Sequence record: PZ386973.1
Length of the DNA: 64,000 nt
Direction: 5' to 3' (one strand)
Source: a phage
The number at the start of each line of letters is the position of its first letter. Position 1 is the first letter of the stretch. The translations under genes and the position numbers were made by a program. Below, one piece after another: positions 15,987-45,295 of this stretch. The notes beneath the pieces are model-generated. The model did no database searches. It was given only the letters and a program-made list of their open reading frames with translations, and was not told the origin of the DNA.

Positions 15987-16155
15987 TTTTGTTCCTTTCT
16001 AAGAACGTATCATACTCAACCGTATCAACATATATGACACCATAGTCATCGGATTTATAGTCCATTTCCCACAGCTCACAGCGATAACACCAACTACCAT
16101 CCGCCCATACAAATATATCATCGGGATGTGTATATACAGATTTAACTATAGACAT
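15973..16155 (-). CDS. hypothetical small protein
   Basis: 60-aa ORF overlapping both neighbours by a few bases. Confidence 0.3.
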   Translation of the reverse strand: MSIVKSVYTHPDDIFVWADGSWCYRCELWEMDYKSDDYGVIYVDTVEYDTFLERNKNGNK

Positions 16156-16970
16156 ATTTGTTTCCCTGGCATATAAGGTCTACCCTCTAAATGAGCTTCC
16201 ACACGAGCAATAAAATCAGGATCACTGAAAGCATCTACCGCACCTTTACTCCAGTAAGGGACCCCACGTTCTTCCAGCTGGTACATCTCACTACGAGTCA
16301 TACCTTGATAGCCGGGCTCCGCTGCTAGAGCACTATCATAGTAGTTAACAACCATAAGTTTCGCAGCAGTCAAATTAAGAACAGGAAATAATTCCCAGTA
16401 GAAGTTAATTACTTGGTTAGAGCAACCAACTACAATAATCATATCTTGACTGGTAATACTGTCAAAAACATTATACATTTCTGCGTATGCAGGAGCATGC
16501 TCTCCAAAGAAGATTACATTAGGTTTAGCCCATTTATAATCATCCGGATCGATAGAACTGTATCCTACATCAATAATCCGTTTATTGCTACTATTGTATC
16601 TATCAGCTACAACAACCTCTTTTAAATATCCGTGAATGTGCAGAATGTCACTATGTGGAACGCCAGCACGCTCAATAAGGTCATCAACGTTGGTAGTCAA
16701 GTTTACTACTTGACCAGGGTATTGTTTATGCCATTCACCAATACGCAAATGCGCAAGATTGGGTTCGACAGTTTTTAGCTCTTCACGACGCTTGTTATAA
16801 AACATATGGGTTTTATGGTAAAAATTACCACGAAAGGCATGAATATTACATACTTCTTCTAGATCATAATCATCCCACAATGCTTTACCACTAGCAGTAT
16901 CAGTACGAAAAGCTCGTACACCACTTTCAACGCTCAAACCTGCACCGCTAATAATAATTACTCTACGCAT
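16146..16970 (-). CDS. Sir2-like (sirtuin family) NAD-dependent protein
   Basis: Rossmann signature SGAGLSVESGVRAFR and HG motif (ILHIHGY); no Cys4 zinc-ribbon visible. Confidence 0.7.
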   Translation of the reverse strand: MRRVIIISGAGLSVESGVRAFRTDTASGKALWDDYDLEEVCNIHAFRGNFYHKTHMFYNKRREELKTVEPNLAHLRIGEWHKQYPGQVVNLTTNVDDLIERAGVPHSDILHIHGYLKEVVVADRYNSSNKRIIDVGYSSIDPDDYKWAKPNVIFFGEHAPAYAEMYNVFDSITSQDMIIVVGCSNQVINFYWELFPVLNLTAAKLMVVNYYDSALAAEPGYQGMTRSEMYQLEERGVPYWSKGAVDAFSDPDFIARVEAHLEGRPYMPGKQICL

Positions 16971-26390: not shown

Positions 26391-26659
26391 TGTCTATTCT
26401 TTTATCTGCTTTAGAAGCAAAACAAAATACTATTGCTGTTATTAAACAGGAAGTACTTAATCTAGAGTCACTTATTGCCGTAGAGATTGATAAAGCAATC
26501 AAAGAAAAAGAATTTAACTGCCATATTCAGGGATTAACTGAATATTCAGAAAACGCCAGAAACAGCGTTATGCAACGACTCACTAAACTAGGCTATGTCG
26601 TAGAAGCTAAGTATGAGCAGCGTGAAGGTTTTTGGCTTGAAATTGACTGGAGCAAATAA
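26390..26659 (+). CDS. hypothetical protein
   Basis: 89-aa ORF, translationally coupled to both neighbours. Confidence 0.4.
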   Translation: MSILLSALEAKQNTIAVIKQEVLNLESLIAVEIDKAIKEKEFNCHIQGLTEYSENARNSVMQRLTKLGYVVEAKYEQREGFWLEIDWSK

Positions 26660-27135
26660 TGTCGGTTTTCCACATTTACACAGATGGTGCTTGTAAGTCT
26701 AACCCAGGTCCAGGTGCTTGGGGTTTTATTGTCTATGATGATAACGACGATCGTTTAGGTTCTAAATCGGGTTATAGTCCTAAAACTACAAATAATGAGA
26801 TGGAACTCACAGCTATTGTAGAAGCTCTACGTTGGTCTGTTAAAAAAGATAATAGACCAATTGCTATCTATACTGACTCTGCTTATTGCAAAAATGGCAT
26901 GGAAAGTTGGATGTTTTCTTGGCAAAGGAAAGGCTGGAAGAAAGCAGATGGTGAAGTTCCTCTTAATCTAGAACTTTGGCAGGAAGCATTTAGATTAACA
27001 CAGCAGTATATTAACTTTCATAATACTAACCCTACCTTTATTAAGGTTAAAGGACATTCTGGTATTAGTGGTAATGAAGCTGTAGATGCCTTATGTAATA
27101 CAGTTATTACTGAAGCTGAAATGGCTGAGATGTAA
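26659..27135 (+). CDS. ribonuclease H
   Basis: Motif YTDGACKSNPGPGAWG typical of RNase HI; 158 aa. Confidence 0.85.
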   Translation: MSVFHIYTDGACKSNPGPGAWGFIVYDDNDDRLGSKSGYSPKTTNNEMELTAIVEALRWSVKKDNRPIAIYTDSAYCKNGMESWMFSWQRKGWKKADGEVPLNLELWQEAFRLTQQYINFHNTNPTFIKVKGHSGISGNEAVDALCNTVITEAEMAEM

Positions 27136-27155
27136 TAAATAAATTAAAAATTCTC

Positions 27156-27184
27156 TTGCTTAAAGCTCTCTAATTTAGTATAAT
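27156..27184 (+). promoter_or_regulatory. sigma70-type promoter
   Basis: TTGCTT-17 nt-TATAAT. Confidence 0.5.
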
Positions 27185-27211
27185 ATTCGTATTGAAAGTG
27201 AGGAGGGCTTT

Positions 27212-27496
27212 ATGCGGATTTATAACTCAAATTCATTAGGATTTAAACCATTGAGAAAACGTGCACAATCACCTCGTCAAATAAGAAAGGCTAATATTGG
27301 TGAGCCAGAAACACGTCTTCCACCTCCTCCAGAACAACGTTTAGTTTATCTGGACGAAGAATTAGCTGAACGCGAAAGAAAAGCTCAAGAAGAGATTGAG
27401 CGTAAGAAAATGTGTACTGCTCCAGCCTACTCCAAGGGGGCTTATCAGTATATCTATACAGCCGAGGAGGCTAAAGATGCGGGGCGTAAAAAATGA
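27212..27496 (+). CDS. hypothetical protein
   Basis: 94-aa ORF; 4-bp overlap with the NADAR gene. Confidence 0.4.
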   Translation: MRIYNSNSLGFKPLRKRAQSPRQIRKANIGEPETRLPPPPEQRLVYLDEELAERERKAQEEIERKKMCTAPAYSKGAYQYIYTAEEAKDAGRKK

Positions 27497-27942
27497 AGAT
27501 TACTGAATTTAAAGGTACTTATAGTTTCTTATCTAACTTTTATTTATCACCAATTACTTTCGAATATCTAAATGAGATATGGCATGCTGATACTGTAGAA
27601 CATGCCTTTCAGGCTATGAAATCCGACCAAAAAGATGATGTAGCTCATGTACTGCGCTCCCTAAGTGCAGGAGTTGCCAAACGTAGGGGACGTAAATTAA
27701 CTCTGCGCTCTGACTGGGATAAGGTAAAAGATGATGTAATGCTAGAGCTTTTACGGTTAAAGTTTGCAATCCCTGATTTGAGAGACAAACTGTTAGCAAC
27801 AAAAAATGCAACTTTGGTCGAAGGAAATACCTGGGGAGATACATATTGGGGTGTTTGCCGAGGCATCGGGGATAATACTTTAGGAGTTCTTTTGATGCAG
27901 GTAAGGTCTGAAATTAAAAGAAGCTTACAGTTAATAAATTAA
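27493..27942 (+). CDS. NADAR-domain (YbiA-like) protein
   Basis: Motifs FLSNFY, VEHAFQAMK and WGVCRGIGDNTLGVLLMQVR match the NADAR/DUF1768 family. Confidence 0.75.
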   Translation: MKITEFKGTYSFLSNFYLSPITFEYLNEIWHADTVEHAFQAMKSDQKDDVAHVLRSLSAGVAKRRGRKLTLRSDWDKVKDDVMLELLRLKFAIPDLRDKLLATKNATLVEGNTWGDTYWGVCRGIGDNTLGVLLMQVRSEIKRSLQLIN

Positions 27943-27950
27943 AAATTCAT

Positions 27951-27979
27951 TTGCTAAACGCTTCAAATTCTCGTATAAT
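27951..27979 (+). promoter_or_regulatory. sigma70-type promoter
   Basis: AAAAATTCATTTGCTA...TCGTATAAT plus CATAAATTGATAAAC leader. Confidence 0.55.
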
Positions 27980-28017
27980 ATACTTCATAAATTGATAAAC
28001 AAAAAGGAAAATAAATA

Positions 28018-28533
28018 ATGGCTAAGCAGAAAAACGCAAAAACTCAAGCAGCTCCGGCAGTTAAAACTTTCCCTCAGACTGAGGCTAATCGCAAAGCTCG
28101 TCTGGAACGCCACCTGCGCAAGCATCCTACCGATGCTCAGGCTGCGCAAGCACTGAATAACCCGGCTCCGATTCGCCAGAAACCTAAGGCTAAGAATACT
28201 GCTCGTTCTGTAGCCCGCCTTGTAACCTATGTGCAGGGTTATGGTCACAAATCTGTTCCAGTAACACTGAGTTTCAATGCTGGGGCTGAATTGTTCCCTC
28301 GTAATGGCATGGCTATGAAAGACTATGAGAAGGCAGTTAACCAGAAGCGTAAACCAACGGCAGATGTACTTCGTGACACTCGTGGCCAGTTTGGTTCTGT
28401 TAAACCAAATATTTTTGGCGTAGAATATAGCAAAGATAACGTTCGTGCTCTGTGCTACGGTGTAGGAATTAAGTTCACCGGCGATTCTGCTCGTAAATCT
28501 GCTAAACCAGCTCGCAAGCGTAAAGCGAAGTAA
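28018..28533 (+). CDS. hypothetical basic protein
   Basis: 171 aa, Lys/Arg/Ala-rich termini. Confidence 0.45.
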   Translation: MAKQKNAKTQAAPAVKTFPQTEANRKARLERHLRKHPTDAQAAQALNNPAPIRQKPKAKNTARSVARLVTYVQGYGHKSVPVTLSFNAGAELFPRNGMAMKDYEKAVNQKRKPTADVLRDTRGQFGSVKPNIFGVEYSKDNVRALCYGVGIKFTGDSARKSAKPARKRKAK

Positions 28534-29118: not shown

Positions 29119-29820
29119 ATGAAAGTAAAACCATTTGGTATGCTAGATATTGAATCTCTAGGAACCCCTGGAGATTGTGGTACTACCCATATCGCAATGC
29201 CTTCATTCGCTTTTGTGGCTATGCATGGAATTGATAAAGACCCTGATCTAGTATTTGTTACTTTAGATGTACAAGATCAACTTAATTCTGGTGCCAAAGT
29301 TACAGCATCTACTCTAGCATTCTGGATGGATCAGGCTAAACATAGCCCGTCTGCTATTCACATTATGGAAGCTATGAAGGAACGTAATCCAAAACTGATT
29401 GCCTTCCAAAATGGTAAACATCATTGCACTAATAAATTAGGCTCAAACTATGCTGCCTTCTCTATGGCTCAAAATATTATGGAGTTGGCTCTAGGCGAAA
29501 ATGCTTTGTATTATGGCAATGGCCCAGAGTTTGATATGACTATCTACTCTGCAAACACGTTCCATGCTGGAACCAATGAAGAGGTAGTTCCGTGGAAATT
29601 CTGGAATTTGGGTAATGTTCGATCTCTTCGTAATCTCTGGATGCAAGCTGGATACAGTTATAAAGCTCTAGAGACAGAAGGTATTAGCTGGGCAATAGCT
29701 AAAATGGAGAAGATGGACACTATTCGTTATGGGATCTATCCGGTTAAGCATGATCCTGCATTTGATGCCTTAGTTGAAAGCTATTGTGTTGCAGCTATGA
29801 TCGAAAAAATGAAAATTTGA
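29119..29820 (+). CDS. putative DEDDh 3'-5' exonuclease (DnaQ-like)
   Basis: Exo I-like LDIESLG and Exo III-like HDPAFDALVESY; 233 aa. Confidence 0.5.
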   Translation: MKVKPFGMLDIESLGTPGDCGTTHIAMPSFAFVAMHGIDKDPDLVFVTLDVQDQLNSGAKVTASTLAFWMDQAKHSPSAIHIMEAMKERNPKLIAFQNGKHHCTNKLGSNYAAFSMAQNIMELALGENALYYGNGPEFDMTIYSANTFHAGTNEEVVPWKFWNLGNVRSLRNLWMQAGYSYKALETEGISWAIAKMEKMDTIRYGIYPVKHDPAFDALVESYCVAAMIEKMKI

Positions 29821-32730: not shown

Positions 32731-33164
32731 TGGGTACGAACATGATTCGTGTACTACGAGAGTTGATTGAAGATGCTCGTAAACGTGGAGATACTGTATC
32801 GGTTAAGCACCTAAGTACGATTCTAGGTGACTTGCAACGTATTAACAAGGATTGCATAACTAAGCTGGAATTTACTAACTGGCTGAAATCCCAGTTCAAG
32901 GCAATTGAGAATACACAGACTGCTGCTGAAAAAGCAAATGTCGAATATATTCCTGATGATGAATATCTAGATCTTTTAGCAGGTTTAGAGTATGAATACG
33001 CTTTGCAACAGCTGACTGAAACCGAAATTCGTAAATACTTTGCAGAACTAGTTAAATTAAACCCAGGTATTACCAAAGCCCTACTAATGAAAACTATTAA
33101 GGCAGAGTTCCCAGGGCGTTATGATGGTAAAACAACTGCTTTGATTGCTAGTGAATTTTTCTAA
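32730..33164 (+). CDS. hypothetical protein
   Basis: 144-aa ORF. Confidence 0.45.
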   Translation: MGTNMIRVLRELIEDARKRGDTVSVKHLSTILGDLQRINKDCITKLEFTNWLKSQFKAIENTQTAAEKANVEYIPDDEYLDLLAGLEYEYALQQLTETEIRKYFAELVKLNPGITKALLMKTIKAEFPGRYDGKTTALIASEFF

Positions 33165-33172
33165 AAATTCAT

Positions 33173-33201
33173 TTGCTAAATGCTTATAAATTCTGTATAA
33201 T
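33173..33201 (+). promoter_or_regulatory. sigma70-type promoter reading into an ORF-free region
   Basis: TTGCTA-17 nt-TATAAT; no ORF of 60 aa or more for about 900 bp downstream. Confidence 0.5.
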
Positions 33202-34013: not shown

Positions 34014-34088
34014 CGGGGTGTAGTCTAAGGGAGAGGCAGGAGTCTTCTAAATTCCTTTATGCAGGTTCGAATCCTGTCACCTCGGCCA
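34014..34088 (+). tRNA. tRNA-Arg (anticodon TCT), read by eye
   Basis: Acceptor CGGGGTG/CACCTCG, T-arm GCAGG-TTCGAAT-CCTGT, anticodon loop CTTCTAA, encoded CCA. Confidence 0.55.
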
Positions 34089-34122
34089 ATTTTATTAACT
34101 GTAACTAAAACAAAGGAAATAT

Positions 34123-35070
34123 ATGTTTGCTACTAAAAATATGAAAGAACTGACTTCTGAGCAGAAAGTAATTCGTACTATTAAACGTTGGGGTATTGGT
34201 GCTGTAGTTGGTTTAGCAGGTTTAATCCTAGCTTTTAATTCATATACTATTGTTTCTGATGGTACGGTTAAAACCCAAACATTCCTGGGTAAAGTAGACC
34301 CTAATCCAGTATTGCCAGGTTTCCATCTTGTAAACCCGTTTGCATCTTTCGATACTTTTAGTACAAAAGATATTGCTGTAAAATTAGATAAACTTCAGGT
34401 TCCTAGTCAGGATAAGTTTAAATCCACTGTTGACCTGACTGTTATGTTGCAGTTTGATGGTTCTAAGGCACCTATTAACCGTATTAATGCGGGTACTCAG
34501 GATCAGGCACTAGACAAGTATGTAACTGAAAAATTACTATCTACTATTCGTGAGTTTGGTAAGTCTGTACCTAAAGCACAAGATTTGTTTGATGCTAAAA
34601 TTCAGGCTCAATTGCAAACTGCAATTCAACAGGAAGTTGAAGAGTATGCACGCCCATATGGTTACACAGTTAAGCAGGTGTTCCTTCAGGATATTACTTT
34701 GCCACCGGTAATCATGGAACAGGTACAGAATACCAAAGTTCGTGAAGAGCAAGTTAATGCTGCGAAAGCTGAACTGGCTCGTGTTGAACAGGAAGCACAG
34801 CAAAAAGTTAAACAAGCAGAAGCAGATCGTGAAGCTCGCAACAACCAAGCTATTGCTAATGAACGTGACGCAGATGCTAAACTGTACGCAGCTAAGAAAG
34901 AAGCTGAAGCTAACGCCGCATTGCAACGTACCATTACTCCTGAGATGATTCGCTGGAAGCAACTGGAAGTTGAAATGATTCGTGCTCAGAAATACCAAGG
35001 TGGTGTACCACAGACGGTAGTTGGTACTGGTTATGATGGCCAGATGATTATGGATATGCGTAACAAGTAA
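34123..35070 (+). CDS. SPFH/band-7 (prohibitin-like) membrane protein
   Basis: N-terminal transmembrane helix, band-7-like core, C-terminal coiled coil; 315 aa. Confidence 0.6.
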   Translation: MFATKNMKELTSEQKVIRTIKRWGIGAVVGLAGLILAFNSYTIVSDGTVKTQTFLGKVDPNPVLPGFHLVNPFASFDTFSTKDIAVKLDKLQVPSQDKFKSTVDLTVMLQFDGSKAPINRINAGTQDQALDKYVTEKLLSTIREFGKSVPKAQDLFDAKIQAQLQTAIQQEVEEYARPYGYTVKQVFLQDITLPPVIMEQVQNTKVREEQVNAAKAELARVEQEAQQKVKQAEADREARNNQAIANERDADAKLYAAKKEAEANAALQRTITPEMIRWKQLEVEMIRAQKYQGGVPQTVVGTGYDGQMIMDMRNK

Positions 35071-35139
35071 TAGTTACACGTAATCTTCGAACCAAGCCTG
35101 CGTTTCCCTCGAGAGCGCGGGCTTTTCTGTATTTAAGGC

Positions 35140-35186
35140 AAAAGAAAAAGCCCCTTACCTTTCGGCAGGGGCTTTTGTTTTTGGTT
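35140..35186. terminator. bidirectional rho-independent terminator
   Basis: Hairpin AGCCCCT...AGGGGCT flanked by an A-run and a T-run, between convergent genes. Confidence 0.7.
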
Positions 35187-35389
35187 TAGAACCACACTCT
35201 CGGTATACAGCAACCACCCATACGGGAGGCCAATCTTGACTGAAAATCTACTCTAGGGGGCAGGATAAGAGTAGGCTTAAAGGCAAACGGATTGAACGCC
35301 GGTATTTGCGTAAACATTGCTGGAGAGCAACAACGTGCTACAGGCATTGGGCAGCACGAAACAGATTTTCTGCAACACATAATTCCTCC

Positions 35390-35806
35390 TTAGGAGTTAT
35401 TACCGCTATTTTGAGCTTTTGCAATTTGGCTTTGGCAGAAGCTATTAAACTTACCCATAAGTGATACAAGCTGCCTCCCATCCTCTGTCTTTGCGAAGTC
35501 TTCGAAAAGGGCTAGTACTGCCTGTCCTTCCGCAGAAACCTGCGGTTGTTGGGTTTGCTGCTGAACTTGCTGCTGAGGCACCTGTTGCTGCATTTGTTGA
35601 GGCATTTGCGACTGCCCGCTCATTTGCTGCATCATTTGCATAGGACTTACACTTCCAGGGTTTTGCTGGAGTTGTTGCTGCATCTGTTGCGCTTCTGCTA
35701 AACGCTGTTGCAATTGTTGTAAGTAGGGGTTATCCAGACCCGGAATGGGCTGCTGGGAGCCCATACTTTGATTAAGTCCGTTATTTACAAAACCATATTT
35801 ACTCAT
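35390..35806 (-). CDS. hypothetical Gln-rich low-complexity protein
   Basis: 138 aa with long Q/M/P-rich tracts. Confidence 0.4.
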   Translation of the reverse strand: MSKYGFVNNGLNQSMGSQQPIPGLDNPYLQQLQQRLAEAQQMQQQLQQNPGSVSPMQMMQQMSGQSQMPQQMQQQVPQQQVQQQTQQPQVSAEGQAVLALFEDFAKTEDGRQLVSLMGKFNSFCQSQIAKAQNSGNNS

Positions 35807-35827
35807 AATGGGCTCCTCCCCTTAATA

Positions 35828-36814
35828 TTAAGCCGGCAGTTTAGCCTGCAGACCAGCCAGAGTCTGAGTGATCGCACCAAGACTTACAGCGATTTGATTA
35901 ATTACCTGACCATTAGCACCGTTACCCGCAGCGATTGCCTCACGTAGGCGACATGCATCTAACTCATCCTGAATACGCGCAGTAGTTACACCAGCGATCG
36001 CAGTCTGAAGTTCACAGCAACATTCAGAGATCTGACGTTCCAGAGAATTCTGGTTAGCACACATCTGAGCCTGAACAGCGGCAAACTGGTTATTAGTTTG
36101 TAAAGTCTGCTGGAAAGCGATCTGTGCAGAATCAAACTTATCTTGTGCACGAGCTATCTGGTTAGCTGCGAAAGATTGATCAATCTGGCGAGAAAGATCG
36201 AACTGACCCTGAATAACGTTGCGAGTTTCCTGGCAGATCTGATTAGACAGATTAGCACCTGTACCATAGATCGTAGTTAGTACAGACTGAGTATCACGGC
36301 TCTGGTTTTGGGATGTCTGGCTAAAACCATTGTTAACTGCGCTTAAAACAGCTCCAGTACCCTGGTTAGCTTCTGTACGAGTAGTGTTAATAGCTGCTAG
36401 AATACTAGCGGTATCTTGGTTCTGAAGTACTGCATCAACTGCGGTACCATCACCAACTACACCACGTCCACCGAATCCACCGAAACCACCGAATCCGCCT
36501 GTTAATAGAGCACCGATTAGGATAGCTCCGAATAGTCCCATACCTTCACCACCGAAAGCACCTGCGTTTGCTGGGTAACCACCCAGTAGGCCAGGGAGGC
36601 CACTAGTAAATACGTTTACTGGTTCTTGCATTTTATGTTTTCCATATTTATGACAATGTTCATCATCGTCATCTTCTTCATCATCGTGTTCACGATGCTT
36701 TTCTTCGTAGGCTCTGACCTTCTCCCACTTTTTCTTATCTGATTCCTCGTGACGGTGCAGTTCTGCTGCAACGCTAGCGACGGTCTCAGGACTCTTAGCT
36801 ACTTCTTCTGTCAT
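35828..36814 (-). CDS. hypothetical Gly-rich protein
   Basis: Start moved to the ATG with an AGGAGG ribosome-binding site (MTEEVAKS); acidic His-rich N-terminus, GGFGGFGGFGG tract, Q/N-rich C-terminal half. Confidence 0.45.
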   Translation of the reverse strand: MTEEVAKSPETVASVAAELHRHEESDKKKWEKVRAYEEKHREHDDEEDDDDEHCHKYGKHKMQEPVNVFTSGLPGLLGGYPANAGAFGGEGMGLFGAILIGALLTGGFGGFGGFGGRGVVGDGTAVDAVLQNQDTASILAAINTTRTEANQGTGAVLSAVNNGFSQTSQNQSRDTQSVLTTIYGTGANLSNQICQETRNVIQGQFDLSRQIDQSFAANQIARAQDKFDSAQIAFQQTLQTNNQFAAVQAQMCANQNSLERQISECCCELQTAIAGVTTARIQDELDACRLREAIAAGNGANGQVINQIAVSLGAITQTLAGLQAKLPA

Positions 36815-37021
36815 TTTTTGACACCTCCTAGTATATAGAAAATGTGTGTCTCTTTGATCACTCATCCATAACATATACTTTACACTACCCCAGCGAAAAT
36901 GTCAAGGGGTCTTTAAAAATTGCCCCCGGATTTTTAGTGGGGTCACAAATTTTGGTCCTCACCACTTATATGCTACCCTTAAGTGCCCTATGATTTTCCT
37001 CTAAAAAGTTAAAAAATTTGA

Positions 37022-37050
37022 TTGCTTGAATGCTAAATTCTCTGTATAAT
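37022..37050 (+). promoter_or_regulatory. sigma70-type promoter
   Basis: TTGCTT-17 nt-TATAAT. Confidence 0.5.
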
Positions 37051-37080
37051 GTATCTATAAATTTGAGAGAGGAACCAAAT

Positions 37081-37599
37081 ATGAATGTTGACGAGCTAAC
37101 ACAGCACCTCTTATCTAGAGGATTTGATACAGATAAATATCATTGCTGGTTAAGTCCGGAAGGATGGCTAACAGTCCCGTTGTATGATTTCTCTGGGATG
37201 TTGAGGGGCTATCAGACGTATAATCCTTCTGCTCCAAAAGGTCATGGTAAGTGCCCCTTTGAGGCTAAATATTTTACCTGCTCTACTACACAGTGTGTAT
37301 GGGGGCTAGAAACTCTCAATGGAGATGAAAAAGTAGTATTGATCGCTGAATCTGTATTTAAGGCAGTTGCGTTACACAACGCTGGTTATCCAGCCCTGGC
37401 AATGTTGGGTTCTTCTCCAGGAAAAGCGTTATTAAAGCAACTGAAATTATTACCTTTTAAATTGGTAGCTGTCGGAGATAATGATCCTGCGGGTGAAAAA
37501 TTTGCTAGAAAATTAAACGGCTTTGTTTCTCCCGTAGATGTGGATGAGATGTCTACCGAAAACTTGAAAAATTTTCTTGCTATGAAGCTAAATTTCTAA
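37081..37599 (+). CDS. Toprim-domain protein
   Basis: Toprim E (LIAES) and DxD (GDNDPAGE); start at the ATG behind a GAGAGAGG ribosome-binding site. Confidence 0.5.
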   Translation: MNVDELTQHLLSRGFDTDKYHCWLSPEGWLTVPLYDFSGMLRGYQTYNPSAPKGHGKCPFEAKYFTCSTTQCVWGLETLNGDEKVVLIAESVFKAVALHNAGYPALAMLGSSPGKALLKQLKLLPFKLVAVGDNDPAGEKFARKLNGFVSPVDVDEMSTENLKNFLAMKLNF

Positions 37600-37620
37600 T
37601 ATAATATATCTTATAAATTC

Positions 37621-37714
37621 GGAAGATTAACCCTAAAGGTAAGGGAGCTGTTTGCTAAACAGCCAGTAACTGTGGAAACATGGTGTGCCAGTTCGAGTCT
37701 GGCATCTTCCTCCA
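37621..37714 (+). tRNA. tRNA-Ser (anticodon GCT), long variable arm
   Basis: Perfect acceptor GGAAGAT/ATCTTCC, T-arm TGCCA-GTTCGAGTC-TGGCA, anticodon loop TTGCTAA, encoded CCA. Confidence 0.65.
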
Positions 37715-37720
37715 GATTTT

Positions 37721-37798
37721 GGTTCTCAAGCTCATATGGTATGAGCACCCGGCTCATAACCGGAAGGTACGTAGGTTCGAATCCTCGGGGAGCCACCA
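37721..37798 (+). tRNA. tRNA with CAT anticodon (Met or Ile), read by eye
   Basis: Acceptor GGTTCTC/GGGAGCC, D-arm GCTC...GAGC, anticodon loop CTCATAA; T-stem weak. Confidence 0.45.
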
Positions 37799-37818
37799 AC
37801 TTAATTAGGGGATTACAA

Positions 37819-38007
37819 GTGGAATTATACATAGTTTATGTTGTGTTTATTCAAGATAGAGAATACCCGGATGAATATAAAAAAGGATATAGGTTAGCCA
37901 GAGCTACCTCTGAGGCCCAAGCTATGGATAAAGTGGCAGATTATATGATTATGGTAGAAAACGTATACTATATCGACTCCCTTGAAGCCTCAAAAGTAAT
38001 TGACTAA
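37819..38007 (+). CDS. hypothetical small protein
   Basis: GTG start after an AGGGGA ribosome-binding site; the track ORF 37672-38007 overlaps two tRNAs. Confidence 0.35.
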   Translation: MELYIVYVVFIQDREYPDEYKKGYRLARATSEAQAMDKVADYMIMVENVYYIDSLEASKVID

Positions 38008-38016
38008 GGAGACTAT

Positions 38017-38202
38017 ATGTCTAAGTTTCAAGAACTCAAGCAAGAGCTAGAAGAATGTGCCTGCCCTGAATGTAGGGGGATTGGTGAAAGTTCTGATGCA
38101 GAAGCAGGAGATACTTTTTGCAATATCTGGATTTGTTCAAATTGCAACGGTACAGGTATTAATCCTAACTGCGGTATTTCCCTAGATATTGAACGAGGAT
38201 AA
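38017..38202 (+). CDS. small zinc-ribbon-like protein
   Basis: 61 aa with CxxC pairs (CACPEC...CSNCNG). Confidence 0.4.
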   Translation: MSKFQELKQELEECACPECRGIGESSDAEAGDTFCNIWICSNCNGTGINPNCGISLDIERG

Positions 38203-38304
38203 TACCTGTGAAACTAAAAGATTATTATATTGGTTGGTTTGTGGGACTAGTAGTAGGATTTTCACTAGGCTATAATATGTATCAACTAATAAACTGATTA
38301 CATG

Positions 38305-38381
38305 GGGGGTGTAATCGAATTGGCATAGGTACTGGACTTAAAATTCAGGTTTTGTGGGTTCGAATCCCACCACCCCTACCA
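38305..38381 (+). tRNA. tRNA, anticodon read as TAA, short variable arm
   Basis: Acceptor GGGGGTG/CACCCCT, T-arm GTGGG-TTCGAAT-CCCAC, anticodon stem CTGGA/TTCAG, encoded CCA; identity needs software. Confidence 0.5.
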
Positions 38382-38556
38382 AATTAAGGAATTAAGATGT
38401 ATAGACCTCCTCCGCCACCAACACGTCGTTCTAGGGAAGTCATCCTTATGGAATTGACGAAAAACTTCAAGGCGACTCTTGAGGATAGAGACTTAGGCAC
38501 AGATGAAGACGTTGATTTCATTTGTAAACTATTAAAAATGAAACTGGAGAAACAAC

Positions 38557-38763
38557 ATGGCTAATCCTGAAATTACCATGCAACGACTCATGACTAAAGG
38601 CATGATAGCCGAGGCAGGTATTGAACAAGAAGTAAAAGGCTATTACGAACAGATTAAGACTATTATAGACTCTGCTAAAAACACCGGAGAAAAAGAACAC
38701 GGTGCAGCAATTATGGCTATAACTCTTATTAGTCTAGACTTGGCCGAAGAATCTGGAGTTTAG
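38557..38763 (+). CDS. hypothetical small protein
   Basis: 68-aa ORF with a GGAGA ribosome-binding site. Confidence 0.35.
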   Translation: MANPEITMQRLMTKGMIAEAGIEQEVKGYYEQIKTIIDSAKNTGEKEHGAAIMAITLISLDLAEESGV

Positions 38764-38793
38764 CTCCTCCAAACAGAATTTTTAAAAATGTAC

Positions 38794-38823
38794 TTGCTTT
38801 TTGTCTTAAATTTCTGATATAAT
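38794..38823 (+). promoter_or_regulatory. sigma70-type promoter
   Basis: TTGCTT-18 nt-TATAAT. Confidence 0.45.
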
Positions 38824-38853
38824 AGTCATATAAATTGATGAAGGAGTTAACTA

Positions 38854-39129
38854 ATGCAAAATCGTGTTGTAGCAACTGGTATTGAAAGTGCAATCTGTAA
38901 ATCCTGGGAAGGCTGGGAAGGTGAGATTGAATGGCTTTATTTCTACGATGTAGAACTCCTGCCGGAAGTTAAAGCTAAATGCGTTGAAGCTGGTATGGCT
39001 CCAGATGCAAAAGCTGATATTGATATTTCAATGTCTGAACTTAAAGGTCGTGTAGTTACCGTTAGTAATGAGGGGGAAGAAGTTTTTGAACTTCCGTTCT
39101 CCTTAGCTGTCACTCCTAAGTTCGACTAA
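38854..39129 (+). CDS. hypothetical protein
   Basis: 91-aa ORF with an AAGGAG ribosome-binding site. Confidence 0.45.
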   Translation: MQNRVVATGIESAICKSWEGWEGEIEWLYFYDVELLPEVKAKCVEAGMAPDAKADIDISMSELKGRVVTVSNEGEEVFELPFSLAVTPKFD

Positions 39130-39136
39130 CTAATAC

Positions 39137-39177
39137 AGCACTGAGCAAGTTCTTCAAAATCTGACTTGCTCAGTGCC
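39137..39177 (+). terminator. stable hairpin, terminator or processing-site candidate
   Basis: 13-14-bp perfect stem AGCACTGAGCAAGT...ACTTGCTCAGTGC; no clear T-run. Confidence 0.4.
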
Positions 39178-39257
39178 CTAAAACTTGATATAATAGTTAT
39201 CTAATTTGGAAACATATTTAAAAGTGTTTAAACAAGTATTTGAATGCTTCTAAATAT

Positions 39258-39345
39258 GGGCGTTTATTCCGTAAGTGGTAGCGGAGGGGATTGTAAATCC
39301 CTGGTCATTGCGACTCGAGTGGTTCGACTCCATTAACGCCCACCA
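39258..39345 (+). tRNA. tRNA-Tyr (anticodon GTA), long variable arm
   Basis: Acceptor GGGCGTT/AACGCCC, anticodon stem-loop GGGGA-TTGTAAA-TCCCT, encoded CCA. Confidence 0.65.
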
Positions 39346-39353
39346 AATTTAAT

Positions 39354-39428
39354 GCACCTATCGTCTAATGGCTAGGACATCAGGATTTCAATCTGAGAAT
39401 CGGAGTTCAATTCTCCGTGGGTGTACCA
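39354..39428 (+). tRNA. tRNA-Glu (anticodon TTC)
   Basis: Acceptor GCACCTA/TGGGTGT, anticodon stem-loop TCAGG-ATTTCAA-TCTGA, T-arm CGGAG-TTCAATT-CTCCG. Confidence 0.55.
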
Positions 39429-39435
39429 ATTTCTG

Positions 39436-39513
39436 CATTCCTAGAGTGTTACTGGACAGCATGTCGGTCTCCAAAACCGTACGGTCTAGGTTCGAGTCCT
39501 AGTGGGTTTGCCA
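39436..39513 (+). tRNA. tRNA-like element with Trp-type anticodon arm (CCA); acceptor stem not resolved
   Basis: Anticodon arm TCGGT-CTCCAAA-ACCGT and T-arm CTAGG-TTCGAGT-CCTAG present; 5' acceptor pairing not found by eye. Confidence 0.35.
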
Positions 39514-39519
39514 AAATTT

Positions 39520-39594
39520 GCACCTTTAGCTGAGATGGATTAGCGCTTGCCTGAAGAGCTTGAGAGGTTCGTTCGATTCGAACAGGGTGCACCA
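39520..39594 (+). tRNA. tRNA-Phe (anticodon GAA), read by eye
   Basis: Acceptor GCACCTT/AGGGTGC, T-arm GTTCG-TTCGATT-CGAAC, anticodon loop CTGAAGA; anticodon stem has two mismatches. Confidence 0.5.
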
Positions 39595-39611
39595 ATTTGA
39601 AGGAGATGCTG

Positions 39612-39884
39612 ATGCATCCTGAAAACTTCTTTATTTACTGCGCGGATAAGTCGCTGAAACGTAGAATTAACAAAGTCTATCATTATCGTGCTAGTCAACA
39701 GCCTTATATATACGCTTTTGACGGTGATCACATTCCACTAGAACAATTATCCTGTGATTACATGATATTGAAGAACTTTGACGAGACAAAGATCTCAAGC
39801 GTTCATAATCGACAGAATCCATTAACGTGGAAATATAAGAAGAAAAAGAAAGGCATCAAATTCTTAAAAAATGTAGTTGCTTAG
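39612..39884 (+). CDS. hypothetical protein
   Basis: Start at the ATG behind a GAAGGAG ribosome-binding site; track start 39597 is TTG. Confidence 0.4.
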   Translation: MHPENFFIYCADKSLKRRINKVYHYRASQQPYIYAFDGDHIPLEQLSCDYMILKNFDETKISSVHNRQNPLTWKYKKKKKGIKFLKNVVA

Positions 39885-39905
39885 TTTCCAAAAGTTCTGT
39901 ATAAT
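39877..39905 (+). promoter_or_regulatory. sigma70-type promoter upstream of tRNA genes
   Basis: TTGCTT-17 nt-TATAAT. Confidence 0.5.
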
Positions 39906-39953
39906 AATTACATAAATTGAACTGGAGAAGCAACATGACAGAACAAGATAAAT

Positions 39954-40029
39954 CGACCGTTGGCTGAATGGCTTAGGCGAAGGATTGCAAATCCTTTTTA
40001 TGTGAGTTCAAATCTCATGCGGTCGTCCA
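39954..40029 (+). tRNA. tRNA-Cys (anticodon GCA)
   Basis: Acceptor CGACCGT/GCGGTCG, anticodon stem-loop AAGGA-TTGCAAA-TCCTT, T-arm GTGAG-TTCAAAT-CTCAT. Confidence 0.65.
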
Positions 40030-40181
40030 ATTTGCTGAAAGAATTGTTAAATCAATTCAGGCACGCGTAGGAACACTGTCTCCGTAATTGAAAGATGAGA
40101 CACGGTTTGGAGAGGTATGCCGCTACACGCTACGGTGCTAACTCCGTCTAGGTGAAAATCCTAGTCAGCAATATAAATTTA

Positions 40182-40264
40182 GGGTCGTTAGCCAAGCGGT
40201 TTGGCGGTGGACTGTTAATCCATGTCGAAAGACAACGTAGGTTCGAATCCTACACGGCCCGCCA
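40182..40264 (+). tRNA. tRNA with long variable arm; anticodon read as GTT, identity uncertain
   Basis: Acceptor GGGTCGT/ACGGCCC, T-arm GTAGG-TTCGAAT-CCTAC, variable stem-loop GTC-GAAA-GAC. Confidence 0.5.
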
Positions 40265-40366
40265 AATTCTGTGTAGAGTTAAGTAAACCGGTAGCCAACC
40301 AGCTATCATTGCTGACATCGAATTCAGCCACAGATACCATTTTCATTAATAACTGAGGAAACAAGC

Positions 40367-40552
40367 ATGTCCAAGAATGTAATTGCGCAGCTAGAAGTTC
40401 ATCGTGATAGCACTATCAATAATATTGAAGTTGAGAAGAAATACATCGAAGAACTTAAACATGATATACTAGTAAGTCTCAACCGTCTTAATGTACGAAA
40501 AGAGTTTCTTAAAGAACTTAATGCAGCTATTGAAAAACTCAAAGCTGAGTAA
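40367..40552 (+). CDS. hypothetical small coiled-coil protein
   Basis: 61-aa ORF with a GAGGAAACAAGC ribosome-binding site. Confidence 0.35.
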   Translation: MSKNVIAQLEVHRDSTINNIEVEKKYIEELKHDILVSLNRLNVRKEFLKELNAAIEKLKAE

Positions 40553-40561
40553 ATAAATTAT

Positions 40562-40638
40562 GCGACCGGGGCTGGCTTGGTAATGGTACTCCCCTGTCAC
40601 GGGAGAGAATGTGGGTTCAAATCCCATCGGTCGCGCCA
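40562..40638 (+). tRNA. tRNA-Asp (anticodon GTC)
   Basis: Perfect acceptor GCGACCG/CGGTCGC, anticodon stem-loop CTCCC-CTGTCAC-GGGAG. Confidence 0.7.
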
Positions 40639-40655
40639 AATAAGGTAGGTTAGCT

Positions 40656-40808
40656 ATGGAACGTAGGGAGTTTACTCCAGAAGAGATAGAGCAGATAAAA
40701 GAATCTGCTATGAAAAATGCTAGAATATCTCTGTCACTGGAAGGTATCATTATTAGTGACGTAAACTTTGAAAAAATCAAAGCCATAGCTGATGAACTGG
40801 AAAAAGTA
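40656..40808 (+). CDS. hypothetical 50-aa protein with S-x3-E-G motif
   Basis: ATG behind an AAGGTAGG ribosome-binding site; sequence RISLSLEG fits the [S/T]xxxE[G/N] motif of FicA/VbhA-type Fic inhibitors. Confidence 0.3.
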
Positions 40809-40814
40809 ATTTAA

Positions 40815-40890
40815 TACATCCATAGCTCAATGGTTAGAGCTACCGCCTCTTAAGCGGAGGGTTCTAGGTTCAAGTCCTAGTGGGTGTACC
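40815..40890 (+). tRNA. tRNA-Lys (anticodon CTT), read by eye
   Basis: Acceptor ACATCCA/TGGGTGT, D-arm GCTCAATGGTTAGAGC, anticodon loop CTCTTAA, T-arm CTAGG-TTCAAGT-CCTAG. Confidence 0.55.
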
Positions 40891-40917
40891 AAATTAAACT
40901 AGCACGAGAAATATGCT

Positions 40918-41265
40918 ATGATTAATGCTAAAGAAGAGTTGTTACTTGCCCTAAAGAATACTAAGTCTGAAGTTAAGTGTATTAAGATAGAATTCGGTTA
41001 TTATGGGGATAAAGAAGTTTGGGTATTACCCGTAGGTTATACAGAAAAAGATATTGAAGATTTTCTAGATAATCTAGACTTTAAATATGATTCTGGTTTC
41101 GGCGGACAACTGCTTTATGGTAACGTATGGTTTACTGATGGAACTTGGTTAGAACGTGGTGAATATGATGGTTCTGAATGGTGGGAATATAAGACTACAC
41201 CAGCAATCCCAGAAGAATGCCGAACAATTAATGGTGAAGTAGATCGTACTTTACTATTAAATTAA
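40918..41265 (+). CDS. hypothetical protein
   Basis: 115-aa ORF. Confidence 0.45.
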   Translation: MINAKEELLLALKNTKSEVKCIKIEFGYYGDKEVWVLPVGYTEKDIEDFLDNLDFKYDSGFGGQLLYGNVWFTDGTWLERGEYDGSEWWEYKTTPAIPEECRTINGEVDRTLLLN

Positions 41266-41657
41266 CAAAATTTCAGTGCAGAACACGGAGCTAGCAATTC
41301 GGAAGTGCTGACTCATGATAAGCTGCCTATGTACTTGCGAAGCGGTCGTGTCCAAGACTCGGACTCTTGCACTGAAAACAATCAAACATTCTAGCGTGGT
41401 TGATGGGGAAACCAGCTTGGCTAGGGCAGAAGCTCGTTCGATTCGAGTGGAAGAATGGTTCTCGTAAGTCCGCACAAGTGATAACAGGTTCGAGTCCTGT
41501 CTAGAATGACACTATAAAGTTTACTTATTGAGTAGGTTCCGATAGATCGGCGGGTCTATTCTGGCATTTAAGAGAGGTCTCGCAAACTTCTTTGTCAGCC
41601 GTGGGGTTCATAGCCTCCAGGTGGCCTACACAATAAGTAAATTTATTAAAAATTCAT

Positions 41658-41686
41658 TTGCTATTCTGCTTAATTATCTGTATAAT
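41658..41686 (+). promoter_or_regulatory. sigma70-type promoter
   Basis: TTGCTA-17 nt-TATAAT. Confidence 0.5.
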
Positions 41687-41718
41687 ATATTTTATAAAGT
41701 GAAGAGAAGGAAAGCAAA

Positions 41719-41877
41719 ATGAAACACAAGATAGCTCAAGTTTTTATGGCATTATGGTGTATGCCAATAGCTATAACAGCATTTAATCTAGATACTCTTA
41801 CTATAGAAGAAAAATGTATCGGATTAGTTAGCGGCTTTAGTATGCTGGGCTTATCTTTGCTGTGGTTAAAGAAATAA
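41719..41877 (+). CDS. hypothetical small membrane peptide
   Basis: 52-codon ORF with a GGAAAG ribosome-binding site; two hydrophobic segments. Confidence 0.3.
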   Translation: MKHKIAQVFMALWCMPIAITAFNLDTLTIEEKCIGLVSGFSMLGLSLLWLKK

Positions 41878-41881
41878 TATT

Positions 41882-41959
41882 CTCCGTGTAGCTCAGTTTG
41901 GCCAGAGCGTTTCGTTTGGGGCGATAGGGTCGGGGGTTCAAATCCTCCCACGGAGACCA
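41882..41959 (+). tRNA. tRNA-Pro (anticodon TGG)
   Basis: Perfect acceptor CTCCGTG/CACGGAG, D-arm GCTCAGTTTGGCCAGAGC, anticodon loop TTTGGGG. Confidence 0.6.
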
Positions 41960-41965
41960 AACAAT

Positions 41966-42043
41966 TGCGGGTTAGATCTCTGGTAGAGATCGCTAGTCTC
42001 ATAAGCTAGAAAGAGGTAGGTTCGATTCCTGCACCCGCTTCCA
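41966..42043 (+). tRNA. tRNA with CAT anticodon (Met or Ile); 1-72 mismatch
   Basis: Acceptor TGCGGGT/ACCCGCT with T-T at 1-72, anticodon stem-loop CTAGT-CTCATAA-GCTAG, T-arm GTAGG-TTCGATT-CCTGC. Confidence 0.5.
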
Positions 42044-42063
42044 TTTTAATAGAGGATTTCGAA

Positions 42064-42231
42064 ATGAAAGTATTTCGATTAGTAGTAAGTGATAAACGTT
42101 TAGGTAAGAATACATCAAAATCCTTACTCGCTCATTACGGTAAAAATTGGGATGAAGTAATGGTAGAGTTTAGTACTAATCACCCTTACCTGAAAGTTCA
42201 CTCTATTAAAGAAGTATACAATGGTTACTAA
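42064..42231 (+). CDS. hypothetical small protein
   Basis: 55-codon ORF with an AGAGGA ribosome-binding site between two tRNAs. Confidence 0.3.
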   Translation: MKVFRLVVSDKRLGKNTSKSLLAHYGKNWDEVMVEFSTNHPYLKVHSIKEVYNGY

Positions 42232-42232
42232 T

Positions 42233-42311
42233 AGATCGCTAGCTCAATAGGTTTAGTAGCATCCGACTTTTAATCGGAAGGTTCTGGGTTCAAGTCCCAG
42301 GCGATCTACCA
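42233..42311 (+). tRNA. tRNA-Lys (anticodon TTT)
   Basis: Perfect acceptor AGATCGC/GCGATCT, anticodon stem-loop TCCGA-CTTTTAA-TCGGA, T-arm CTGGG-TTCAAGT-CCCAG. Confidence 0.7.
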
Positions 42312-42329
42312 ATTTCAAGAAAAACGCAG

Positions 42330-42358
42330 TTGCTTGATGCTTAATTTCTTGTTATAAT
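42330..42358 (+). promoter_or_regulatory. sigma70-type promoter
   Basis: TTGCTT-17 nt-TATAAT. Confidence 0.5.
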
Positions 42359-42596
42359 ATTTATATAAATTGATGAGGATTTCTCCTCATCATAGTTCAC
42401 TAAGGTATTAGCTCGACCTAGGACTGGCTGCCAAAAAGCACGATCCCTACGATTCGGGAGAAGTTCTAGATTAGTCCACTAGATTCAGCGGCAACTGAAT
42501 AGTGTATCGGGTTTGCGAGATGACGTAGTTCCTTCCGCTCGAAGCGAAGGTGCTGTAGTTACGCCGAGCTAATAGCCTTAGTAAATTAAAGAATTT

Positions 42597-42675
42597 GGGG
42601 GATGGGTCTGCTAGGAGTGGACACCTCGCTTGCACCGAGGACATCAGAACGATTCGAATTCGTTATCCTCCACCA
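42597..42675 (+). tRNA. tRNA-Ala (anticodon TGC)
   Basis: Acceptor GGGGGAT/ATCCTCC, anticodon stem-loop CCTCG-CTTGCAC-CGAGG, T-arm AACGA-TTCGAAT-TCGTT. Confidence 0.6.
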
Positions 42676-42680
42676 AATAC

Positions 42681-42757
42681 GCGTGATTGATGGAATGGGC
42701 ATACATACCGTCCTTAGAAGTCGGGTTTTGAGGGTTCGAATCCCTTGTCACGCACCA
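42681..42757 (+). tRNA. tRNA, anticodon read as TAG, short variable arm
   Basis: Acceptor GCGTGAT/GTCACGC, T-arm GAGGG-TTCGAAT-CCCTT; identity needs software. Confidence 0.5.
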
Positions 42758-42869
42758 AATTTGATGGTCAGAGTAAATTAAACCTACTATCTCGGTTGAG
42801 CTGTTTTAATGGGTTCGAATCCCAGCGAGGCGTAACTGCCTGGCGTGATAGAGGCATCATCTTATTATT

Positions 42870-42960
42870 GGAAGAGCAAATCGAATTGGCGACGAAAACC
42901 GCTTGGAAAGTGGCTGACTGGTAAAACGGCTTGAGAGTTCAAATCTCTTCTCTTCCGCCA
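42870..42960 (+). tRNA. tRNA-Ser (anticodon GGA), long variable arm
   Basis: Perfect acceptor GGAAGAG/CTCTTCC, anticodon loop TTGGAAA, T-arm GAGAG-TTCAAAT-CTCTT. Confidence 0.55.
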
Positions 42961-42972
42961 AACAATTTATAT

Positions 42973-43067
42973 GGTAGGTCAATCCAAAGGCTGGCGCTGG
43001 ACTCCGACTTGAAATCGGTTGATCGTAGTGATACGGTGTAAGGGTTCGATCCCCTTACCTACCTCCA
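42973..43067 (+). tRNA. tRNA-Ser (anticodon TGA), long variable arm
   Basis: Perfect acceptor GGTAGGT/ACCTACC, anticodon loop CTTGAAA, T-arm AAGGG-TTCGATC-CCCTT. Confidence 0.55.
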
Positions 43068-43432
43068 AATCTTGGAATATGCCGGAATTAGTAGACGGGA
43101 CTGCCGAATAGGTTTACTAGGAACATCCACTCCTAGAAATATACCTTAAAGGCGGTTGAGATAAATGGTCTATCTCGTGAAGGTTCAAGTCCTTCTATTC
43201 CTTGATACATCAATGGCTCAAAGTGTAACGGTGCTATTTGATGCTCTTGGAAAGACTTTCCCGACAGGCGTTCGGGGGTAAGCTTCTGAGGCTAGAATAG
43301 AAGAGTTTCTGAGAGCCGCCACAATTGAAAATTCGTACTCGTCTTGAGCTGCGTGCAATAGGAGATAACTTGATTAGTATTCTAGAACATGCTAATTGAG
43401 GATGGTTTCGCTAACCCTGCGAGTTTTCAATT

Positions 43433-43509
43433 GTGGCTATATCATAATTGGTTAATGATCCTGATTGTGAATCAGGCCTATGTGGATTCGAATTCCACTA
43501 GCCACCCCA
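43433..43509 (+). tRNA. tRNA-His (anticodon GTG)
   Basis: Perfect acceptor GTGGCTA/TAGCCAC, anticodon stem-loop CCTGA-TTGTGAA-TCAGG, T-arm GTGGA-TTCGAAT-TCCAC. Confidence 0.7.
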
Positions 43510-43534
43510 AATTAACTTAAATAGGAAATAAAAT

Positions 43535-43732
43535 ATGGCTGATTTCTGCAAACAATGCTCTATTGATATGTGGGGCAGAGATACTGGTGATCTTTCTGGT
43601 TTGATTACAGAAGCCGAAGTTAAAGAAGGTTATGGTGCAGTTGTGATTTGCGAAGGATGCGGAGTTATTCGAGTGGATCATGAAGGCAAACGTTTAGAAG
43701 AGCAGGAAAATTTAGGAGAAACAAATGAGTAA
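43535..43732 (+). CDS. small zinc-ribbon-like protein
   Basis: 65 aa with CKQC...CEGCG pairs. Confidence 0.4.
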   Translation: MADFCKQCSIDMWGRDTGDLSGLITEAEVKEGYGAVVICEGCGVIRVDHEGKRLEEQENLGETNE

Positions 43733-43961
43733 TGCCTTAATTAGTGAAATTATGTTAACACGTCTTGCAGAATTACAAACTCTTCGAGATGAATCTCAGA
43801 ATAACTTAGCCTACCATAAACAGATGGTAGATACTCTTACTACTCGTATTGAAACTTACGAGCGCGATATTGCAGCATTACAAGCCCTTTTCTCTGTGTC
43901 AGCACCCGATACGTTAGAACAGCCTCCTGTGTCTCAGCCGGTAGAAACAGCATCTAGTTAA
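43725..43961 (+). CDS. hypothetical small coiled-coil protein
   Basis: 78-aa ORF overlapping the previous stop. Confidence 0.35.
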   Translation: MSNALISEIMLTRLAELQTLRDESQNNLAYHKQMVDTLTTRIETYERDIAALQALFSVSAPDTLEQPPVSQPVETASS

Positions 43962-43970
43962 TAGCATTCT

Positions 43971-44046
43971 TGGAGTGTAGATCAATTGGCAGATCGTCGG
44001 CCTCTGACTCCGAAGGTTCCTGGTTCGATCCCAGGCACTCCAGCCA
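43971..44046 (+). tRNA. tRNA-Gln (anticodon CTG)
   Basis: Perfect acceptor TGGAGTG/CACTCCA, anticodon loop CTCTGAC, T-arm CCTGG-TTCGATC-CCAGG. Confidence 0.6.
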
Positions 44047-44052
44047 AACAAT

Positions 44053-44128
44053 TGGAGAGTAGTGTAACGGTTAGCACAACGGCCTTTGACTCCGTTAATG
44101 GTAGGTTCGATTCCTCCTTCTCCAGCCA
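44053..44128 (+). tRNA. tRNA-Gln (anticodon TTG)
   Basis: Acceptor TGGAGAG/TTCTCCA, anticodon loop CTTTGAC, T-loop TTCGATT. Confidence 0.55.
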
Positions 44129-44136
44129 AATAATAG

Positions 44137-44212
44137 GCGGTTAAGCACACGGGTTGTGTCGCAGGCCTTCCAAGCCTCGCTGAGTAGGGTTCGATTCCCT
44201 CTAGCCGCTCCA
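44137..44212 (+). tRNA. tRNA-Gly (anticodon TCC)
   Basis: Acceptor GCGGTTA/TAGCCGC, anticodon loop CTTCCAA, T-arm TAGGG-TTCGATT-CCCTC. Confidence 0.55.
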
Positions 44213-44228
44213 ACTTTAAGGAAACGTT

Positions 44229-44637: not shown

Positions 44638-44645
44638 CGGGTTTT

Positions 44646-44720: not shown

Positions 44721-44735
44721 AATTTAAAAATTCAT

Positions 44736-44764: not shown

Positions 44765-44794
44765 ATTTATATAAATTAATGAGAGGGAAACCAA

Positions 44795-45294: not shown

Positions 45295-45295
45295 T

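Follow-up and report, generated by a model that had tools for sequence, protein, structure and literature searches.

The gene at 27493-27942 (+) of a 64,000-nucleotide stretch of phage DNA (sequence record PZ386973.1; the whole stretch is henceforth termed the window) very probably encodes an orphan, antitoxin-like NADAR ADP-ribosylglycohydrolase, i.e., the Bas32-type anti-DarT factor AdfN, which disarms DarTG1. This counter-defence role is already known, having been published in 2025 for the Bas32-type orthologue. The additions made here, namely a natural deletion allele, a second NADAR lineage and the widespread misannotation of these genes, are incremental. The case also illustrates that a genuine counter-defence gene can be recognised by a reader provided only with the text of the sequence.

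The gene, referred to here as adfN, is an ATG-started open reading frame (ORF) of 149 codons with exact coordinates, and its N-terminus is unambiguous because an in-frame stop lies one codon 5′ of the ATG. Its assignment as an adfN orthologue encoding a NADAR-domain ADP-ribosylglycohydrolase draws on the ORF itself, Pfam, identity to the Bas32 protein, AlphaFold2 and Foldseek. In the profile search against NADAR (DUF1768) that an earlier note on this DNA had proposed, PF08719 matched with E=2.9e-22 and 80.1 bits over model positions 9-163 of 163, for a curated gathering cut-off of 35.1 bits. PHROG 1017 was matched at 1.3e-44, and HMMER alignments connected the protein to Escherichia coli YbiA (PDB 2B3W, E=1e-15) and to the Phytophthora nicotianae NADAR protein (PDB 8BAU, E=3e-7). 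An AlphaFold2 model computed from 119 homologues reached a mean pLDDT of 97.1 and a pTM of 0.91. The best Foldseek matches of this model in the PDB were 2B3W (TM 0.82, 39% identity), 8BAU (TM 0.75) and 8BAT (TM 0.50), and every PDB match beyond these three solved NADAR-family structures had E>0.6. Together, model and structural search predict an alpha-helical, YbiA-like core.

The hallmark NADAR/YbiA motifs that the earlier note had read from the letters are present, and they are invariant in the 119 homologues. Residues without variation in this set are S14-N15, E36, Q40, K43, E110, D116 and W119 as well as the G126-x-N128-x-L130-G131 motif; K63 and W75 are nearly invariant. The contacts to ADP-ribose have been defined in 8BAU (Schuller et al., Mol Cell 2023, PMC11543638), and E88, K95 and K115 are essential, along with the catalytic acid, in the NADAR domain of E. 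coli C7 DarG1 (PMC11543638). We mapped equivalent residues between the window protein, 8BAU and C7 DarG1 through HMMER alignments. E36 corresponds to P. nicotianae E43 and C7 E88, K43 to K50 and K95, and K63 to K75 and K115, while R67, D74, W75, K79, E110, D116 and W119 align with P. nicotianae R79, D86, W89, R93, E125, D130 and W133, respectively. The predicted active site comprises S14, E36, K43, K63, R67, D74, W75, E110, D116 and W119, of which S14, E36 and K43 make up the Ser/Glu/Lys triad that, with the catalytic acid or His, marks the distal-ribose pocket of the NADAR superfamily. Its catalytic acid, E110, is the glutamate of YbiA/NADAR-type enzymes and neither the aspartate of DarG1 nor the histidine of T4-type proteins. 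A profile built from the clade of the window protein recovered YbiA at 4e-39 and 8BAU at 1e-19, and gave no match to the DarG1-type structure 8BAT at E<=0.01. The YbiA-type equivalog model TIGR02464 was matched with 68.1 bits (E=1e-18), below its curated cut-off of 73.7. The protein is a core-only, Glu-type NADAR whose closest structural counterpart is YbiA, and it falls outside the housekeeping equivalog, the DarG1 family and the T4-type family alike.

A specific function is suggested by the close relationship to phage Bas32. At 145 of 149 positions (97%), the window protein is identical to bas32_0066 (YP_013435443.1), and the four substitutions (T9A, S58N, K104E and V109I) are conservative and located away from catalytic residues. 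Window and Bas32 also have a gene order in common, consisting of rnh, a 94-aa ORF (the T5.090 homologue), the NADAR gene and a DUF7022 gene. The locus tags of the form bas32_xxxx identify Escherichia phage IrisVonRoten as the BASEL phage Bas32. We scanned all six-frame ORFs of both sequences by phmmer, using the window protein, YbiA and P. nicotianae fragments as queries. In the 112-kb Bas32 genome, bas32_0066 was the sole NADAR-like ORF, and no second NADAR was detected by any of the three queries in Bas32 or in the window. As such, AdfN^Bas32, the NADAR protein that Johannesman et al. (Nat Commun 2025, PMC11825919) reported to be encoded by Bas32 and Bas33, can only be bas32_0066, and near-identity, synteny and the lack of a second candidate in Bas32 make the window gene its orthologue. 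The Bas32 and Bas33 proteins are called identical in that paper, contrary to the deposited records, in which two residues distinguish them (A9/T9 and E104/K104; L004:2501-2947 vs L005:601-1047).

AdfN^Bas32 has been characterised in vivo. Ectopic expression of the protein neutralises DarT1 in uninfected E. coli and brings the plaquing of T5, a DarTG1-sensitive phage, as well as RB69 and Bas25 to full titre on DarTG1 hosts (PMC11825919). It was without effect on the thymidine-modifying DarTG2 system, on which T5 was not rescued, and its activity is described as enzymatic (PMC11825919). According to the main text of the paper, these tests employed ectopic expression, and a Bas32 deletion mutant does not figure there. 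With a 97%-identical, syntenic protein that neutralises DarT1 and rescues phages, the counter-defence against DarTG-like systems envisaged in the earlier note has a direct precedent, and the alternative offered there, nucleotide salvage, found no support. Based on the overall identity of 97% and the untouched active site, we transfer the activity to the window allele, which, despite its four substitutions, would be expected to behave like AdfN^Bas32. A native contribution of the Bas32-type gene to protection from DarTG1 may likewise be presumed. One WP85 record already labels the gene ‘antitoxin-like enzyme, NADAR superfamily’.

Comparison with the known NADAR systems places the window protein next to AdfN^Bas32, with which it shares a length of 149 aa, the genomic slot, the genus Tequintavirus and an identical active site. 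DarG1 (from E. coli C7 and, as 8BAT, from G. lovleyi) has in common with it the core fold, the equivalents of E88, K95 and K115 and, as predicted here, hydrolysis of N2-guanine ADP-ribose. Yet DarG1 adjoins DarT1, whereas the window gene is without a DarT-like neighbour, and the N-terminal beta1-beta2-alpha1 extension of DarG1, a proposed DNA groove, is missing. The absence of this extension follows from the position of the conserved glutamate (36, as opposed to 88 in C7) and from the AlphaFold2 model, which starts at the core. In addition, DarG1 uses a catalytic aspartate (D171 in C7) where the window protein has E110, preceded two residues earlier by L108, and the resemblance to 8BAT is weak in both the structural and the profile comparison. 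AdfN^T4 (gp30.3) is, like the window protein, a core-only orphan without the extension and, as predicted for the window protein, an anti-DarTG1 factor specific for guanine-ADP-ribose; however, T4-type proteins carry a histidine in place of the catalytic glutamate that the Bas32 type retains. [quoted passage not shown] E. coli YbiA shares the Glu-type active site and a similar size (168 aa in the 2B3W chain), but its context is LexA-controlled or related to riboflavin, in contrast to the early region of a phage, and it fails to rescue DarT1 toxicity in vivo (PMC11125620), unlike the Bas32 orthologue (PMC11825919).

In the mechanism that we propose, a T5-type sigma-70 promoter probably drives the early co-transcription of adfN and the T5.090 homologue, and translation of adfN is probably coupled via an overlap of stop and start codons. 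In a host with DarTG1, DarT1 would modify guanines in the phage DNA with ADP-ribose at the N2 amino group and thereby block replication; the NADAR enzyme would then cut the N-glycosidic bond between ribose and guanine, restoring normal DNA such that replication could proceed. Both the guanine-ADP-ribose chemistry and in vivo rescue have been published for DarG1 and AdfN^Bas32 (PMC11543638, PMC11825919). By the same reasoning, DarTG1-type defence would be the pressure that keeps adfN in nature. We regard adfN as an orphan since no DarT-like or other toxin gene adjoins it. Searches of its surroundings with Pfam, PADLOC and NCBIfam gave no toxin partner or defence signature except for two feeble matches, i.e., PDC-M42C, matched weakly, and a model named ‘NADAR family anti-phage protein’, for which 47 bits stayed below the cut-off of 240. 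The immediate neighbours are the T5.090 homologue, which has no Pfam match, and the DUF7022 gene, and neither is matched by an ART or DarT model.

A point against AdfN is that, in both sequence and structure, the protein is nearer to housekeeping YbiA than to DarG1-type NADAR domains. Given the failure of YbiA to relieve DarT1 toxicity, anti-DarT1 activity could not be foreseen from family resemblance alone. The gene might accordingly specify a YbiA-type N-glycosidase that destroys reactive intermediates of the riboflavin pathway, or an enzyme with some role in nucleotide metabolism, in keeping with YbiA as the closest solved structure, with the match to TIGR02464 (‘riboflavin biosynthesis intermediates N-glycosidase’), with the many GenBank labels that read YbiA, N-glycosidase or GTP cyclohydrolase II, and with a location just 3′ of the nucleotide-metabolism genes nrdAB (ribonucleotide reductase), frd (DHFR) and thy (thymidylate synthase). 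We consider such a role very unlikely, as the TIGR02464 score stays below the cut-off, the gene stands alone without a ribA or ribD fusion and without riboflavin genes seen in its neighbourhood, T5 and many close relatives dispense with it, and the nearly identical AdfN^Bas32 neutralises DarT1 in vivo. That the protein acts as a non-enzymatic antitoxin mimic, which inhibits a toxin by binding, as has been reported for another anti-DarT factor from phage, seems extremely improbable. Another phage NADAR protein does need no enzymatic activity (PMC11825919), but the catalytic and ADP-ribose-binding residues are all invariant or nearly so among the 119 homologues of the window protein, which argues for selection on catalysis, and AdfN itself is described as an enzyme.

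The AdfN assignment is compatible with a broader range of substrates, and it is conceivable, if on balance doubtful, that the protein additionally erases ADP-ribosyl-cytidine and/or ADP-ribosylated RNA generated by other ART-based defences or toxins. Its active site is of the Glu type (E110), where DarG1 has Asp and the T4 type has His. In a 2026 study, Glu-type NADAR/YbiA members removed ADP-ribose from both cytidine and guanine in DNA and RNA in vitro, whereas DarG1 and T4 NADAR removed it only from guanine (PMC12945103). The AdfN authors, too, suggest activity against other ADP-ribosylating defences, although AdfN^Bas32 failed to counter the thymidine-modifying DarTG2 system (PMC11825919). 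No defence system is known that ADP-ribosylates cytidine, which weakens the case. If the broader activity were real, it would imply protection against ART-based defences other than DarTG1. That the protein protects T5-like phages in this manner, with two separate NADAR acquisitions in adjacent slots of their genomes reflecting a recurrent need, is a rather unlikely scenario.

The surroundings of adfN in the window match the early region of T5. The genes nrdA, nrdB, frd and thy, two small ORFs and rnh precede the adfN unit in this order, and homologues of T5.089 and T5.087 follow adfN. The RNase H gene (rnh, T5.091 homologue; Pfam RNase_H, E=5.4e-32) occupies 26659-27135 (+), and the T5.090 homologue (94 aa, phrog_4593), identified as an ORF, by PHROG and by comparison with T5, extends over 27212-27496 (+). 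The TGA of the latter overlaps the ATG of the NADAR gene (ATGA), which suggests translational coupling of adfN to the T5.090 homologue; this upstream gene also occurs in phages without NADAR. Further context is provided by the DUF7022 gene (T5.089 homologue) at 28018-28533 (+).

The T5.090 homologue and the NADAR gene form a pair bracketed by 49-nt direct repeats with 78% identity. The first copy, at 27138-27186 (+) and 5′ of the two-gene unit, resembles a T5 early promoter, with TTGCTT (27156-27161), a 17-nt spacer and TATAAT (27179-27184). The second, at 27933-27981 (+) directly 3′ of the NADAR stop codon, contains TTGCTA (27951-27956), again a 17-nt spacer, and TATAAT (27974-27979). At both places the T5 record annotates a promoter, i.e., one between rnh and T5.090 and, as the second, P-H207; the second copy is the equivalent of P-H207 and is predicted to drive the DUF7022 gene. 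The upstream -35 element TTGCTT scores only 3/6 and was missed by a generic promoter scan; it was found through the repeat and the T5 annotation. The motif AAAAATTC-NN-TTGCT-N-AA-N-GCT occurs in five copies in the window vs none in shuffled sequence, each followed by TATAAT (27146-27167, 27941-27962, 33163-33184 and 56948-56969 on the plus strand; 9986-10007 on the minus strand). On the plus strand, no terminator-like site was found between the NADAR gene and the next promoter-like element. The earlier note had placed adfN in an early operon with RNase H. Neighbourhood and strand agree with this placement, but a separate promoter-like element lies between rnh and the T5.090 homologue. The transcription unit likely starts after rnh, with the T5.090 homologue as the immediate partner of adfN, and early expression of adfN in the window phage may be expected from this arrangement.

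Over 3.2 kb around adfN, the window shares 96-97% identity with members of Tequintavirus, vB_EcoD-Elw and vB_EcoS_HASG4 among them, and by this similarity it is assigned to a T5-like phage of the genus Tequintavirus (Demerecviridae, Markadamsvirinae). In the phage collection, tblastn recovered 96 records, Escherichia phage IrisVonRoten among them, with a copy at least 90% identical; all remaining matches were below 60%. Megablast likewise located adfN in 96 records, at 95.6-98.7% nucleotide identity, compared with 446 records that share part of the 3.2-kb neighbourhood. For the adjoining DUF7022 gene, 229 records were recovered, the majority of them at 80-95% identity. The adfN cassette is hence more uniform than its flank, as might result from strong constraint or from recent exchange between T5-like phages. 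Relatives outside this group are 50-60% identical. Some of them reside on phage or phage-like genomes, e.g., a 154-kb contig with dUTPase, DUF932 and QueH, and others stand alone in cellular-looking contexts, e.g., beside a BCCT transporter and Ldh_2.

T5 itself has the order rnh, promoter, T5.090, P-H207 and T5.089 and no NADAR gene, an arrangement shared by the very close relative vB_SalS-SIA3lw. Accessory distribution of this kind is common among counter-defence genes. The absence of adfN from T5 agrees with the published sensitivity of this phage to DarTG1 (PMC11825919). Presence or absence of the gene could help to predict which T5-like phages, therapy candidates included, resist DarTG1 hosts. 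DNA alignment with SIA3lw and Bas32 delimited a NADAR-specific segment at 27427-27940 (+), which consists of the last ca. 22 codons of the T5.090 homologue, in diverged form, and the NADAR gene. Homology between NADAR-carrying and NADAR-less genomes resumes at AAAAATTCATTTGCT, right after the NADAR stop codon and at the promoter element, such that the right junction coincides with one copy of the AAAAATTC motif. In all seven phages compared (7/7), whether or not a NADAR gene follows the T5.090 homologue was reflected in the type of its C-terminal tail. A simple insertion between the 49-nt promoter repeats was considered and rejected, as the T5.090 homologue is retained in relatives without NADAR, which diverge only from ca. 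27427 onwards.

Within adfN, exact 13-nt direct repeats (AAAAGATGATGTA) are located at 27630-27642 and 27726-27738 (+), 96 nt apart. A natural allele of 117 aa, termed P0002 (L017:1501-1854), was found on three T5-like contigs of ca. 107-109 kb. It lacks exactly 96 nt (32 codons, residues 51-82) in frame and retains one AAAAGATGATGTA copy at the junction, which marks it as a repeat-mediated in-frame deletion. Since K63, G66, R67, D74, W75 and K79 are lost, the product is probably inactive.

A second NADAR lineage, 54-59% identical, occurs in other Markadamsvirinae. In Salmonella phage vB_SenS_UTK0009 (OQ359889.1, L015:4001-4450), the gene is situated between the RNase H gene and the T5.090 homologue, and the copy in Bacteriophage Eos (MN478377.1, L016:2986-3495) has the same neighbourhood, apparently after RNase H, in a record whose product labels look shifted by one. 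These positions point to an independent acquisition of a NADAR gene in the same early-gene neighbourhood.

Annotation is where the present assignment has practical value: most of the 96 GenBank records describe the gene as ‘swarming motility protein’, ‘GTP cyclohydrolase II’ or ‘hypothetical’. The full range of adfN labels encountered was ‘swarming motility protein YbiA’, ‘GTP cyclohydrolase II’, ‘N-glycosidase’, ‘DUF1768’ and ‘hypothetical’. Some labels of small genes nearby are implausible as well, e.g., ‘tail length tape-measure protein’ for a 71-aa product and ‘metallopeptidase’ for one of 78 aa. The T5.087 homologue at 29119-29820 (+), which matches an Rv2179c-like 3′-5′ exoribonuclease domain (E=4e-8) and the exonuclease family PHROG 255, is labelled ‘metallopeptidase’ in several records, unlike its domain matches.

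Elsewhere in the window, a 274-aa ORF at 16146-16970 (-) takes the position of the Sir2-like (NAD-dependent) gene T5.102/bas32_0053; if Sir2-like itself, it would be a second gene related to NAD or ADP-ribose in this phage. Typical of T5-like phages is a cluster of tRNA genes, and 22 were called at 34014-45544 (+). This set differs somewhat from the Bas32 annotation; for example, tRNAs for Val and Gly and additional Ser tRNAs are missing from the calls in the window.
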